Sequence record: OR352947.1
Reading direction: 5' to 3' (one strand)
DNA from: Escherichia phage AV117
Length of the DNA stretch: 64,000 nucleotides
Position 1 is the first letter of the stretch, and every line of letters starts with the position of its first letter. Positions 40,828 to 64,000 of this stretch are shown here, in pieces. Both the position numbers and the translations under genes were made by a program. Below the pieces are notes generated by a model. The model was not told the DNA's origin. It did not search any database and saw only the letters and a list, made by a program, of their open reading frames with translations.

Positions 40828-41928
40828 TTACGCTGCGAAGATTTTATCCCACATCGCAACAACTGCATCTCGATTATACTTCTTCCATACTGCTTCAGCA
40901 CGTTTAACTCGAGCTTCGTATGTGTCAGTGAATTCTAATACAGCTTTTGTGTAAAGCGCAACTACTTCTTTCTTAGGAGTAGAGGAATCAATTTCTACAC
41001 GCACAGTATCTGGGTCGTATTCGAATGTCGCATGAGGATAATCCTTAAAAACTAACTGGATTACAGGGACACCTTTAGAGATAGCTTCAATAGAACTATT
41101 CTCTACTGTACCCGTGTCAGGACACGTATTAATAAGTGCTTTAGCTGTTTTAAGACGTTCCATGATTTCACTGTGTGGAGCATCAATAATAACAGGATAT
41201 TTAGCTGGTGGTGCCCATTTGCTTGGACAGTATCCTGCGCCATTTTCGCCTAGTGCTTTAATCGCTTCAAGAGCAACATCAGTACGACGCATTTTAGTGT
41301 CATAACGTTGTGCACTAATAATCAGATCAGTCGCCGGAAGAACTTCAGGTTTCTCATTCAAACAAATAACCGGATAATCTTCGGCTTCAAACAACGGATT
41401 TGCTCGCCAATAATCATAATCAATTTTGTCAGTCAGACCTGAAGTCATATAACAATATTTGCGTTCAAATTCACGGAAGGCTTTAGTAGGAGCATAACTC
41501 TTACCACCATTCTTATGAATTTGAATAGTCTGGTCCCAAATTTGAACAATGCCACGAGATACCGGTTCAAATGGTGTTGCCATAAAATTCTTATGAACTT
41601 TAGAGAGACCTGCGTCTTTAATTGCCTGAACGGTTAGTTTAGTCGGTTCCATAGTAACAACAAAATCGTATTCATGGATGCCGGCTAGTTCAACAATCTT
41701 ACGAGCCATAGTATAACTCATACCTAGACTGAATTTAGTCAGATGACCAACAGGATGGTGTGTAACTTTCCAGTCACCAAACGTGTCATTGTCAAAGCCG
41801 ATATAATCAATATCAGCACCGATGGACACAAGATATTTCAACACATTTAAATGTACTGCTTCAAGACCACCTTGTACACGGTCAGGATTAAATGGGACTG
41901 CACGAGATGGGATAAACATAACTTTCAT
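40828..41928 (-). CDS. GT-B fold glycosyltransferase-like protein (GT4-like E-x7-E region), candidate DNA or other sugar transferase
   Basis: 366 aa; segment DTGTVENSSIEAISKGVPVI resembles GT4 donor-binding motif; sits between rIIA.1 and gene 39. Confidence 0.6.
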   Translation of the reverse strand: MKVMFIPSRAVPFNPDRVQGGLEAVHLNVLKYLVSIGADIDYIGFDNDTFGDWKVTHHPVGHLTKFSLGMSYTMARKIVELAGIHEYDFVVTMEPTKLTVQAIKDAGLSKVHKNFMATPFEPVSRGIVQIWDQTIQIHKNGGKSYAPTKAFREFERKYCYMTSGLTDKIDYDYWRANPLFEAEDYPVICLNEKPEVLPATDLIISAQRYDTKMRRTDVALEAIKALGENGAGYCPSKWAPPAKYPVIIDAPHSEIMERLKTAKALINTCPDTGTVENSSIEAISKGVPVIQLVFKDYPHATFEYDPDTVRVEIDSSTPKKEVVALYTKAVLEFTDTYEARVKRAEAVWKKYNRDAVVAMWDKIFAA

Positions 41929-53577: not shown

Positions 53578-54099
53578 TCAGTAACCATTATCCTGGCGTT
53601 CAAAGTTGTGTTGGTTTTTCAAGTAGTAAAGTTTAAAGATTTCTTCAGCGGAAAGACCAAGACCTTGGAACATATTCAGAACAAAGTGCAGAATATCAAT
53701 CATCTCGAATTTAATTTCGAGCTGGTCTTCAGGAGACAGTTCATCGATACGACGATTTCGATATTCAGCATGTTGAGCTTTCCAAGGCTTCCATACAGAG
53801 CTAGCGGCTTTTTCACCATTGCTCATACCACCGAGTGAAGTCAACAGTTCACGGAATTCATCATCAATATAATCTTTCTGATTACGCAGCCAATCAACAA
53901 CATCGCCAGCAGTGGCCAATTCGTCAGGATGTTTGTTATGTTCAGGCTTATCATTTGCCAGACGAATCTGTAAAGATTTCTGCATATCAAGCATTACCTG
54001 CAGAGGGTCTTTATCTTCATGAATCAGAGCATTAAAATAAGCTTCTTCTGCTTTATCAACACCAGAAATAAGTTGTGAACATTCGTTAAAGTGCGCCAT
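53578..54099 (-). CDS. 56: dCTP pyrophosphatase (gp56-like, MazG-type)
   Basis: Synteny next to soc; start set to ATG with AGGA RBS (MAHFNE...). Confidence 0.6.
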   Translation of the reverse strand: MAHFNECSQLISGVDKAEEAYFNALIHEDKDPLQVMLDMQKSLQIRLANDKPEHNKHPDELATAGDVVDWLRNQKDYIDDEFRELLTSLGGMSNGEKAASSVWKPWKAQHAEYRNRRIDELSPEDQLEIKFEMIDILHFVLNMFQGLGLSAEEIFKLYYLKNQHNFERQDNGY

Positions 54100-60569: not shown

Positions 60570-60932
60570 TTAAAAGAATTTAAATTTTTTCTTGGTCCGT
60601 TCATTAAAAGCTTGTTGTACTTGCATTGTAACACATTTTTCAACATGCGGTGCAAGTTCTGCTTTTCTGTCCTGGTCAAGAACTGCAAAGTCCATTACGA
60701 TTTTACCATCAACCCAGTCTAGTTTTGTAATATAGACTATATGATGAGAACCATCTTCAAGTGTAATCAGAATCTCTTGAATGACATTTTCCATTGCTGA
60801 ACGGATAATTTTAAGAGATTCATTAAACACTCGTTCTTTGCGAATGTCTTCCCCTTCCGAAGAAGGGGATTCATCAACGATTTCTAGATTTAAATCATCG
60901 AGATTATTCATCGAAATCTTCCATTTCGTCAA
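60570..60932 (-). CDS. 40: gp40-like head assembly accessory protein
   Basis: 120 aa; synteny between uvsX and 41. Confidence 0.6.
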   Translation of the reverse strand: MTKWKISMNNLDDLNLEIVDESPSSEGEDIRKERVFNESLKIIRSAMENVIQEILITLEDGSHHIVYITKLDWVDGKIVMDFAVLDQDRKAELAPHVEKCVTMQVQQAFNERTKKKFKFF

Positions 60933-62076
60933 GGTCGTTTTCTATATCTGCTGCAGACGGAGCATCAGAAGTTTTAACCGGAACTTTAGTTGTGGCTTTG
61001 CAATTAATAAGGTCATTAACAGCGTCATCAACTTCTTTAATAGAAGAGATAGCACCTAGTTTATATTTAGTTTCAATTGCATCTCGGAAAGGTTTGTGTT
61101 TAAACAAAGGTCCCCAGAATTCTACACAATCAGTAGCTTTAGCACGCCATGATTTTTCTTCACGAATCATTTCGCCAGTTTCTTCGTCAAGGAATTCACG
61201 AGCATACCAACCAGCTTTAGGCTTAACTACAAAACCAATTTCAGTTGCCATTTCTAACAAGCCACTGAATGGGTCGATACCACCATCAAAATTAACAGTG
61301 ATTGGGAAAGTAGATTTTTCTTTAACGGTGCGAGATTTTTCTGCTTTCAACGTGAAGTCATAACCGGTCAATTCTGTACCTTCTTTAACCTGACGTTTAG
61401 AGATAAAAAATACCGTGTTGGCAGAATAAAGAATACCTGTACCACCACCCATAATCTCTTTAGGATACAATCCGCCGATTTCCATTGCTGTATGGTTGAT
61501 TGCAACACATGGAATATCTTTAATAGTCAGATAAGGAGTCACAATGCGGAACAGAGATTTAAGTGCCTTAGCACGAGACATATCACCTACAACTTTCTCG
61601 TTCAATGCATCTTCAGTTTCTTTCTTAGATGCAGTATTACCGATTGAATCGATAAAGATAATAACTTTATCACCGCGTTCAATCGCGTCAAGCTGATTAG
61701 TCATATCAACTTTAAGTTGTTCGACAGATTGAATCGGAGTATGAACTACACGGTCTAAATCAACACCCATTGAACGAAAATAAGATTCTGAAGCACCAAA
61801 TTCCGAATCATAGAACAAACAAATTGCATCTTTATATTTCTTCATATATGCTGCAACCATGGTCAGCCCAAACAACGTTTTAAAGTGTTTAGAAGGAGCA
61901 GCAAAAATAGTTAAGCCTGATTGCAACCCGGCATTCAGTGCACCACCTAATGCAATATTCAACATCGGAATACGAGTAGGGACTTCATCGCGATTATTAA
62001 ACAACTTAGACTTAGTCAAGTCTGCAGTCATTTTAGAAGTAGAAGCTTTAATCAGACGAGATTTTAAATCAGACAT
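60904..62076 (-). CDS. uvsX: UvsX recombinase (RecA-like)
   Basis: 390 aa; matches recalled T4 UvsX (MSDLKSRLIKASTSK...). Confidence 0.95.
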   Translation of the reverse strand: MSDLKSRLIKASTSKMTADLTKSKLFNNRDEVPTRIPMLNIALGGALNAGLQSGLTIFAAPSKHFKTLFGLTMVAAYMKKYKDAICLFYDSEFGASESYFRSMGVDLDRVVHTPIQSVEQLKVDMTNQLDAIERGDKVIIFIDSIGNTASKKETEDALNEKVVGDMSRAKALKSLFRIVTPYLTIKDIPCVAINHTAMEIGGLYPKEIMGGGTGILYSANTVFFISKRQVKEGTELTGYDFTLKAEKSRTVKEKSTFPITVNFDGGIDPFSGLLEMATEIGFVVKPKAGWYAREFLDEETGEMIREEKSWRAKATDCVEFWGPLFKHKPFRDAIETKYKLGAISSIKEVDDAVNDLINCKATTKVPVKTSDAPSAADIENDLDEMEDFDE

Positions 62077-62175
62077 TGTATTTTTCCATAGGCATCATTA
62101 TATTTTACTCATGTTTAAAAGATAAGACGATTATATACTAACGGTTATACAGCATTTAAAACTTTAAACAGGCTC

Positions 62176-62724
62176 TTAACGAGCCCATTTGATAATTTCT
62201 GTAATCAAATTATTACGTTCGCTTGCATTAAATCCTATAACTTTGTTAGCACCATCATGATTAAGTAATTGATACGTTTGGATTTTGTTATGAATTGCAA
62301 ACTCTTCAAAATATGAAATGACTGTATTAAAACCGAATGAAGACAAAGTAATAAGGTCGTCTTCAAAACTTTCAGTCATTTCGTTACGTGTTAAAATAAT
62401 TGTGAACACATCATGGTTTTGGCAAAGACGAACATAATCCTGTTCATAAACGTCAAGAACCGAGTCCACATCTTGTCGAATACGTCCATAAACCCAGTTA
62501 CTAATATATCCACGGTCTAACAGATAAATCTTAGTAGGGTCTAAATAATTCAACATCGTTTCGAAACAGCCAACTTCATTTCGAGACTTAACATCGAAAC
62601 GTCCATCAACTGTTCGTTTAGGGAAATCAATCTTTACATATCTTTCACTAATTTCCATTATGTCATTAATGAAAGTTGTTTTACCAGCATTATCCGGGCC
62701 ATCTACTAAAATAATTTTAGCCAT
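62176..62724 (-). CDS. P-loop nucleoside/nucleotide kinase-like protein (thymidylate-kinase-like fold signature)
   Basis: 182 aa; Walker A VDGPDNAGKTT and DRGYISNWVYG resembling the DRY..S..AYQ lid region of dNMP kinases. Confidence 0.6.
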   Translation of the reverse strand: MAKIILVDGPDNAGKTTFINDIMEISERYVKIDFPKRTVDGRFDVKSRNEVGCFETMLNYLDPTKIYLLDRGYISNWVYGRIRQDVDSVLDVYEQDYVRLCQNHDVFTIILTRNEMTESFEDDLITLSSFGFNTVISYFEEFAIHNKIQTYQLLNHDGANKVIGFNASERNNLITEIIKWAR

Positions 62725-62725
62725 T

Positions 62726-63625
62726 TTATTCCTCGATTACGACATCTTCATATTTAGGTATATTATACGGCGAAGAAATTAAAGCATTAAAGTAGATGAA
62801 CTCGCCAAGACCTGGATGGAATACTTCTTCAGGATTTTCGAAGTATTGAATCTTCGGACGTCCTTTAAGAATTTGATAGTACTCAGTTTTAGTTGGTTTA
62901 AAAATTCGAATCAGCGCTTCTTCAGGATACTTATTTCTGTCGAAGCTATTATTTGGATCGGTTATATAAAGCGGTTGACCTAATTGAATTGCACATTCAA
63001 CCACTTGTTCAAAACGATAGCACGGGTCACTAATTCGAAATGGATGAAAAATACCATCTAGATGAATAGGAGCCAAATCACCTACAAGACGCTGCATGAT
63101 GGAAGGACGTATAACTTTCTGCGTTACGATAATCTTATTACCATCTGCACCTGCGTTAACCAGCACTTCTTTTTGACGTTCATTCAACACAGTAGTTTGA
63201 AGTGAACGATTAACAGACAACATGTCGGTTTTTAAGAATTCGTCAATATAAAAACGTGGTTTATTAGGGTCTGCAGTGATATTGAAATTGAATTCTACGT
63301 CAAAAGTGCCGTCATATCCAGTGATATCTGTGATTAGAAAATCACAATCATAATAATCAATTAATGAATCAACCACAAATTCATTTTCAGACCAGAAATA
63401 TTTACGAGTGTTATATGCGTTATCTTTATACCATAATGGAACAAACTTAAATTCTGGGAAAAGTCGTTCACATTCTTTAATATCAGATGCATTACGTGGA
63501 TATGTAATCACATCACCCGGATTAGCACGGTGCAAATGAAGTTGGAAGTTGCCATCCTTAAGGATAGCATACTGTCCAGTTTCATAAGACCGCATACTCA
63601 AGATAGGTACGCGGAAAATAGCCAT
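62726..63625 (-). CDS. hypothetical protein (299 aa), no recognisable motif
   Basis: ORF track; abuts kinase-like ORF (stop 62726, next start 62724). Confidence 0.6.
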   Translation of the reverse strand: MAIFRVPILSMRSYETGQYAILKDGNFQLHLHRANPGDVITYPRNASDIKECERLFPEFKFVPLWYKDNAYNTRKYFWSENEFVVDSLIDYYDCDFLITDITGYDGTFDVEFNFNITADPNKPRFYIDEFLKTDMLSVNRSLQTTVLNERQKEVLVNAGADGNKIIVTQKVIRPSIMQRLVGDLAPIHLDGIFHPFRISDPCYRFEQVVECAIQLGQPLYITDPNNSFDRNKYPEEALIRIFKPTKTEYYQILKGRPKIQYFENPEEVFHPGLGEFIYFNALISSPYNIPKYEDVVIEE

Positions 63626-64000
63626 TAGTCAAGGAATCCTTTAACATAATCAAAATCACGTTCAAACACATGGGCACTTACCATGGTATGAGTATAATCA
63701 CCAACTTCTACACCACATTCTTTAGCGATATAATGAAGTAATTTTCCTTGGAGATAAAAATCCAACTGCATAACAACAGCACAGTTCTGAGAACGCATAT
63801 GGCAGTGGGTATAAAGCTTACCATCACGAATATAATAAGTCACTGAGTCAGTACATGGATATTCAAGTGTTTCGTCCGAATCAAGCAAAGCCTGATCTGA
63901 ACTTTCAAGAATTTGAAACACAACTCTTCGAGAGTTAGGTTTTTCTTTAAGTTCTTTTAGAAGAGTTGGTAACTGGGCCGCAATGCGAGGACCGTAGAAA
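63625..64000 (-). CDS. thymidylate-synthase-family pyrimidine hydroxymethylase (gene 42-like), C-terminal part; 5' end outside window
   Basis: Open frame continues past the GTG reported by ORF track to the window edge; motifs P.SRR, catalytic PCTD, YYIRD, MRSQN align with the TS/dCMP-hydroxymethylase fold. Confidence 0.6.
   Translation of the reverse strand, partial: FYGPRIAAQLPTLLKELKEKPNSRRVVFQILESSDQALLDSDETLEYPCTDSVTYYIRDGKLYTHCHMRSQNCAVVMQLDFYLQGKLLHYIAKECGVEVGDYTHTMVSAHVFERDFDYVKGFLD

Follow-up and report, generated by a model that had tools for sequence, protein, structure and literature searches.

A three-gene cassette beside uvsX in Escherichia phage AV117 as the predicted base-side core of an arabinosyl-5-hydroxycytosine pathway

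Gene content of the uvsX-proximal interval

We have analyzed a 64,000-nucleotide stretch of DNA from Escherichia phage AV117 (sequence record OR352947.1; hereafter the window), focusing on the three minus-strand genes that follow uvsX at the end of the window (Table 1). In phage T4 the interval between uvsX and gene 42 holds segA and b-gt. Here it holds genes for a 182-aa kinase-like protein and a 299-aa protein, next to a gene of the thymidylate synthase (TS) family; an earlier sequence-only reading had located these three open reading frames (ORFs) here, and all are where it placed them. With its end at 63625, the TS-family ORF extends past the window, leaving its N-terminal ~114 aa outside. 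Taken together, the evidence below makes it very probable that these genes are the base-side core (hydroxylase, first sugar transferase and nucleotide kinase) of the arabinosyl-5-hydroxycytosine pathway of Mosigvirus.

The packing of the three genes is operon-like: the TS stop and the start of the 299-aa ORF overlap as TAATG, a single nucleotide separates the stop of the 299-aa ORF from the kinase ATG, and GAGGAA lies just 5' of that ATG. The arrangement is not a chance one, since the same 1.9 kb is 98–99% nucleotide-identical in more than 150 Mosigvirus (RB69-like) genomes, including PNJ-6, F2, HX01 and HY126, which answers the comparison with RB69-like genomes that the sequence-only reading had proposed. 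The window phage is itself a Mosigvirus. In the annotation of phage SA79RD the kinase ORF is equated with RB69 ORF045c and the TS ORF with ORF048c, and the RB69 genes gp45, gp46:47 and gp48, as well as the Afh cluster of HY126, are the same genes in the same order. The one departure, not a substantive one, is that the RB69 record splits the transferase into ORF046 and ORF047; gp46:47 is a single ORF divided in that record by a sequencing error (Lee et al., PMC13326640), and in the window it is one intact ORF of 299 aa.

The sequence-only reading had suggested that a DNA-modification module has been swapped at this place, a view at odds with a canonical glucosyltransferase gene elsewhere in the genome. 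A sequence search with T4 proteins found no homolog of a-gt or b-gt in the window at E≤1. The swap itself holds up: an RB69-type arabinosylation system occupies the T4 b-gt/42 position, and the predicted GT-B fold of the 299-aa protein would supply the sugar transferase that such a module needs.

Table 1. Coordinates of the cassette, its flanks and other genes in the window discussed in the text
Feature	Coordinates	Strand	Basis
Predicted dCMP 5-hydroxylase (5-hydroxy-dCMP synthase), C-terminal ~124 aa; RB69 gp48 ortholog, TS superfamily	63625-64000	minus	
Predicted compact GT-B glycosyltransferase, 299 aa; RB69 gp46:47 and DLP3 gp79 ortholog	62726-63625	minus	
Thymidylate-kinase-fold P-loop nucleotide kinase (predicted), 182 aa; RB69 gp45 ortholog	62176-62724	minus	
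Intergenic stretch between the kinase cassette and uvsX	62077-62175	minus	read from sequence
uvsX	60904-62076	minus	
Predicted second arabinosyltransferase, 366 aa; RB69 gp3/ORF003c ortholog ("Aat")	40828-41928	minus	phmmer to PDB 9iqz/9ir0
dCTPase (gene 56 homolog); supplies dCMP, removes dCTP	53578-54099	minus	ORF; annotated dCTPase in PNJ-6; Pfam dUTPase_2/PRA-PH
RB69 ORF040c-like ORF, 105 aa	58282-58599	minus	
RB69 ORF041c-like ORF, 124 aa	58655-59029	minus	

Identity of the three gene products

RB69 and the Acinetobacter phage DLP3 replace all of their cytosine with mono- or poly-arabinosylated 5-hydroxycytosine (5hoC), in which arabinose is ether-linked straight to C5 without a hydroxymethyl bridge (Lee et al., NAR 2026, PMC13326640; preprint June 2025). 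Lee et al. refer to He et al. (2026, in Nat Chem Biol; doi 10.1038/s41589-026-02150-z) for HY126, its Afh genes and crystal structures, and to Mahler et al. (2025, in Cell Host Microbe; doi 10.1016/j.chom.2025.06.005) on arabinosyl-5-hydroxycytosine phages. The cassette is the core of this system as described in 2025–2026 and is, in that sense, already known. The sequence-only reading had tentatively pointed to RB69-like phages with arabinosyl-5-hydroxymethylcytosine (arabinosyl-hmC): the phage group and the sugar were right, whereas the base is 5hoC rather than hmC.

The 124-aa TS fragment matches PF00303 (E 3.2e-16; 59.7 bits, where 24.3 is the cutoff) and is identical at 122 of 124 positions (98%) to the crystallised HY126 hydroxylase (PDB 9iqu/9iqc/9ir2). 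In E. coli ThyA numbering it carries E143, C146, N169 and D177, where T4 gp42 has D143, C146, D169 and D177; ThyA itself has L143, the catalytic C146, D169 and N177. Asparagine at ThyA position 169 (D169N) is diagnostic of 5-hydroxylase activity, and the RB69 ortholog gp48, which binds an FMN-like flavin (FMN, flavin mononucleotide), converts dCMP to 5-hydroxy-dCMP (5hodCMP) in vivo with incorporation of 18O2; side by side with T4 gp42, it yields 5-hydroxydeoxycytidine (5hodC) and not 5-hydroxymethyldeoxycytidine (Lee et al., NAR 2026, PMC13326640). The same paper cites FMN binding and O2-dependent dCMP hydroxylation for the HY126 enzyme too. Judged by its sequence, then, the TS homolog of the window hydroxylates dCMP at C5 with the aid of a flavin and is no hydroxymethylase.

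A dCMP hydroxymethylase of the T4 gp42 type was considered and rejected, on N169 in place of D169 and on an identity to gp42 of just 27.6%, against 67.7% for UvsX, 85.4% for gp41 and 83.2% for gp40 and their T4 counterparts. The strong divergence that had been remarked on from the sequence is thus real, while the labels given to the gene at the time, "gene 42" and "hydroxymethylase", do not stand.

The 299-aa protein was described earlier as lacking any recognizable motif, and we agree: it matches nothing in Pfam or NCBIfam, and PADLOC, phmmer against the PDB and a 30-sequence profile against the PDB likewise gave nothing or chance matches such as DEPTOR. Its family, PHROG 3891, is annotated as "unknown function". 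The structure tells more. An AlphaFold model built from the 30-sequence alignment (pLDDT 94.4) has two Rossmann-like domains and structural similarity to GT-B enzymes. Foldseek places UDP-GlcNAc 2-epimerases, which have the GT-B fold in common, at the top of its PDB matches, and also finds MshA; these matches agree with the published ones. The protein is 100% identical to its HX01 counterpart, 46% identical to gp79 of DLP3 and 48% identical to TH1_063 of Shewanella phage Thanatos, and Lee et al. likewise assign the gp46:47 family as arabinosyltransferase (PMC13326640). On the strength of fold, orthology and distribution, we predict the 299-aa protein to be the first (base-proximal, alpha) arabinofuranosyltransferase.

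The 182-aa protein contains the stretches GPDNAGKTT and DRGYISNWVYG, that is, a Walker A motif (GPDNAGKT) and an LDRG motif, and all 21 homologs compared share residues G8, D10, G13, K14, D69 and R70. Sequence searches against the PDB gave P-loop-level matches only (RecA, thioredoxin noise), and a profile search a marginal match to vaccinia thymidylate kinase (Tmk; E 0.007); identity to cellular and poxviral thymidylate kinases (e.g. vaccinia A48R, PDB 2v54) is 13–17%. By fold comparison, its closest relatives are P-loop nucleoside monophosphate kinases, specifically Tmk. Structure prediction, which the sequence-only reading had recommended for both proteins, has given a GT-B fold for one and a Tmk fold for the other.

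Genomic context predicts that the kinase acts on a modified dCMP rather than on dTMP. We slightly favor the view that 5hodCMP is its dedicated substrate, which would make the cassette self-sufficient and the kinase, in T4-like phages, partly redundant with gp1. A role as sugar kinase was set aside: the protein has a nucleotide-kinase fold, the sugar kinase of the system is the C-terminal domain of gp52:53, and the gene is kept in loci with no arabinose genes nearby. The earlier suggestion that the kinase makes an activated sugar donor is unlikely for the same reasons, sugar activation being the task of gp52:53 (AfhE). Essentiality data for these genes in Bas46 are not reported in a phage Tn-seq preprint that we consulted.

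Distribution and linkage of the trio

In a tblastn search of phage records the transferase was found in 348 and the kinase in 343, in the same genera. The range of the gp3-type transferase, the predicted second arabinosyltransferase, is narrower: 211 records, all from Mosigvirus, from Acinetobacter phages, which have two copies apiece, or from a single Tegunavirus entry. Among the lineages with the 299-aa family, tblastn detected no gp3-type gene in those of Klebsiella, Serratia, Yersinia and Proteus phages, of Dhakavirus-type Escherichia phages and of Thanatos. This narrower range fits the mono-, di- and tri-arabinosylation reported, and it speaks for a universal role of the 299-aa family as first transferase.

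A scan of IMG/VR yielded 47 loci, 41 of which had enough flanking sequence for linkage counts, linkage being defined as lying within 6 kb. The kinase gene is linked to the transferase gene in 40 of the 41: directly downstream, and usually overlapping, in 28, and 0.7–2.9 kb upstream in 12, JS98, with kinase, TS and transferase in that order, being an example. A TS homolog is present in 40/41 loci and adjoins the transferase upstream in 37/41; all three genes occur together in 39/41. Across the full set the sequence signatures persist as well, with N169 and D177 in 46 of the 47 linked TS homologs, the P-loop pattern of the kinase in 42/47 and its DR motif in 46/47.

The orthologous trios of DLP3 (gp78–gp80) and Thanatos (TH1_062–064) have transferases 46–48% and kinases 44–46% identical to those of the window, and Thanatos keeps the TS, transferase, kinase order. 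The number of sugars differs: DLP3 adds a third arabinose via two gp3-type paralogs, while Thanatos has a single arabinosyltransferase and mono-arabinosylated DNA according to Lee et al. (PMC13326640). The Thanatos paper assigned TH1_063 a pyrophosphorylase activity.

More distant examples retain the trio. Environmental contigs (L036–L049; transferase ~38% identical) keep the TS, transferase, kinase order, and no arabinose-pathway genes were found within 6 kb of it; a 356-kb contig holds the trio at 28–38% identity. TS, transferase and kinase are a conserved, portable core to which the sugar-donor genes are accessory. That the trio is kept without linked sugar-donor genes places the role of the kinase on the base or nucleotide side, and not in sugar activation. 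The environmental contigs suggest a portable cassette that may draw on a UDP-sugar of the host, and hence possibly on a different sugar.

One locus departs from the pattern. L054:3615-5254, whose transferase is just 26% identical, is the only adequately flanked locus without a kinase gene. It is also alone in having a linked TS homolog with serine in place of asparagine at ThyA position 169, and it may represent a different chemistry. In L046:4850-7573, one of the environmental contigs that keep the usual order, the trio forms a lone plus-strand island among minus-strand genes for a TnsA-like endonuclease, tail sheath and amidoligase.

Proposed pathway and its alternatives

We propose the following route. 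The dCTPase (gp28 in RB69; Table 1 of PMC13326640) would supply dCMP, as published for its orthologs. The TS homolog would then use FMN and O2 to convert dCMP into 5hodCMP, a step also established for orthologs. Next, 5hodCMP would be phosphorylated, by the gp1-type dNMP kinase as seen in vitro and, in the cassette, by the 182-aa enzyme, through which the cassette could be self-sufficient where a phage has no gp1. After the kinase, host nucleoside diphosphate kinase and then the phage polymerase would act, the triphosphate taking the place of dCTP so that 5hoC enters DNA, again as published for orthologs. The 299-aa GT-B enzyme would, judging from fold, orthology and distribution, move the first alpha-D-arabinofuranose from UDP-arabinofuranose (UDP-Araf) to the 5-OH, and the gp3-type transferase would probably add the second. 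The genes for UDP-Araf synthesis, equivalents of gp50–55, lie just past the window end; UDP-Araf is made by the equivalents of gp55, gp52:53 and gp51, with gp52:53 (AfhE) combining a sugar kinase and a uridylyltransferase (PMC13326640).

The system resembles T4 gene 42, b-gt and gp1 in site and logic: beside uvsX, a TS-family enzyme alters C5 of dCMP, a kinase supplies replication, and glycosylation from a UDP-sugar falls to a GT-B enzyme. It differs in adding a hydroxyl instead of a hydroxymethyl group, in using flavin and O2 instead of methylene-tetrahydrofolate and arabinofuranose instead of glucose, in a transferase with no sequence similarity to b-gt or a-gt, and in the extra Tmk-fold kinase inside the cassette.

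Several observations weigh against this assignment of roles. The 299-aa protein lacks any sequence-level match to a glycosyltransferase, so that only the fold comparison is informative. Single DLP3 transferases were inactive on 5hoC-DNA with UDP-arabinose (PMC13326640). In the Thanatos paper, TH1_063 incubated with UTP and xylose-1-phosphate gave UDP-xylose by liquid chromatography–tandem mass spectrometry, which is at odds with a GT-B transferase. The kinase scores below the thresholds of both its families (12.3 bits vs 27 for PF02223; 16.8 vs 83.25 for TIGR00041), and hence has a Tmk fold yet is not a canonical Tmk. Finally, the gp1-type kinase of RB69, gp159, phosphorylates 5hodCMP (PMC13326640); as this substrate is already served, gp45 may be redundant or act on something else.

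The alternative that survives best, in itself improbable, is pre-replicative glycosylation, whereby the 299-aa enzyme arabinosylates 5hodCMP, the kinase phosphorylates arabinosyl-5hodCMP and the polymerase incorporates a glycosylated dNTP. It would give gp45 a task of its own where the gp1-type kinase leaves it without an obvious one, and it would account for the failure of single transferases on 5hoC-DNA; the data of Lee et al. do not separate a first arabinosylation on the mononucleotide from one on DNA (PMC13326640). The abutting or overlapping of transferase and kinase genes in 28/41 loci points the same way. However, a self-sufficient cassette is the simpler account of this linkage and makes the alternative the less parsimonious one, and TS–transferase adjacency is also seen in T4, where gene 42 lies beside b-gt and glycosylation takes place on DNA. 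The 299-aa family is acidic throughout (median isoelectric point 5.0, compared to 9.05 for T4 beta-glucosyltransferase), which could indicate a nucleotide acceptor; we dropped this proxy because T4 alpha-glucosyltransferase, at 6.1, and the DNA-acting gp3-type enzymes, at 5.3–8.4, show that it does not discriminate. To our knowledge, every characterised phage DNA glycosylation is post-replicative, as with T4 a-gt and b-gt, which counts against a pre-replicative route. So does the third arabinose of DLP3, which is added on DNA (PMC13326640). If true, the pre-replicative route would, as far as is known, be the first DNA glycosylation pathway of its kind.

Slightly less likely still is that the kinase is a generic auxiliary dTMP or dNMP kinase, enlarging nucleotide pools without a specific part in modification. 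The Tmk fold and the annotation are compatible with such a role, and the Tmk of an unrelated jumbo phage is dispensable. The distribution of the 182-aa family, though, is nearly equal to that of the transferase and hydroxylase, and the gene stays in the trio across 28–100% identity and changes of gene order. We found no counterpart of the 182-aa kinase gene in the T4 stretches examined, and we know of no T4-type hmC phage that has one, which also speaks against a generic role.

We regard as doubtful in the extreme the idea that the 299-aa protein is not a transferase at all, and instead forms a UDP-pentose or modifies a UDP-sugar in the manner of a pyrophosphorylase or epimerase. It draws on the UDP-xylose product of TH1_063, obtained in one assay, and on the epimerases at the top of the Foldseek matches, which share the GT-B fold. 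Yet the nucleotidyltransferase fold and activity belong to gp52:53, TH1_060 and AfhE, and mono-arabinosylated Thanatos has a single arabinosyltransferase, syntenic with the 299-aa family (PMC13326640); many other lineages carry this family without a gp3-type transferase by tblastn. In the transfer assays of the Thanatos study all acceptors were unhydroxylated, which makes the negative result uninformative. The pyrophosphorylase report for TH1_063 (L003:5995-6897) conflicts both with its fold and with the nucleotidyltransferase role of TH1_060, the gp52:53 homolog.

The model of the sequence-only reading, in which a diverged gene-42 hydroxymethylase makes hmC for a non-glucose adduct and the kinase activates the donor or phosphorylates a base, can be dismissed almost outright: TS-family membership, the T4 gene 42 position and a 2018 RB69 paper that reported arabinosyl-hmC (proposing only ORF003c as transferase and not discussing ORF045–048) are outweighed by N169, by the near-identity to the HY126 hydroxylase, by the assignment of sugar activation to gp52:53/AfhE, by the product of RB69 gp48, which refutes the model for orthologs, and by a 2026 AEM paper that calls the former RB69 assignment erroneous.

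With the three genes read as the base-side core of arabinosyl-5-hydroxycytosine synthesis, the system is of interest as a case where flavin chemistry has taken the place of folate chemistry in a TS-superfamily enzyme and where the ether link of the sugar is to cytosine C5 itself. The modification shields phage DNA from type II restriction, from the Brig1 glycosylase and from some CRISPR systems; it also has consequences for sequencing and for phage therapy. What the present analysis adds is the view of TS, transferase and kinase as a portable three-gene core that persists without linked sugar-donor genes.

Neighboring genes and related loci

The gp3-type gene sits between rIIA and the gene for the topoisomerase large subunit, 21 kb from the cassette. 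Its product has no Pfam match and hits PDB 9iqz/9ir0 ("phage HY126 glycosyltransferase") with a phmmer E of 3e-249.

The intergenic stretch next to uvsX contains a T4 middle-promoter-like site for uvsX (GCTG..N..TATAAT); a weak hairpin sits at the stop codon of the kinase gene, and the SA79RD annotation carries an equivalent promoter and terminator. In our scans, promoter-like sites occurred at the frequency expected from shuffled sequence and no terminator reached the threshold. UvsX itself is clearly more diverged from T4 than the adjacent gp40 and gp41 (67.7% versus 83–85%), and a homing-endonuclease gene has inserted into uvsX and interrupts it in Thanatos and in certain Yersinia and Proteus relatives. 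Two conserved Mosigvirus ORFs, ORF040c-like and ORF041c-like, are situated between dmd and gene 41; they have no Pfam or PADLOC match and no counterpart at this place in the T4 annotation.

Two contigs that are not T4-like (L008:5496-9220 and L055:4301-6865) have the order kinase, transferase, U32-peptidase-like protein, with no TS homolog found within 6 kb. L008 also encodes a polymerase of the PolIII-alpha type. After its U32-peptidase-like protein comes a GT47-like one; the former shares 51% identity with the Mosigvirus homolog of gp50, which Lee et al. label a "sugar or heterocycle reductase" (PMC13326640); the gp50-like protein is thus strongly conserved between L008 and Mosigvirus.

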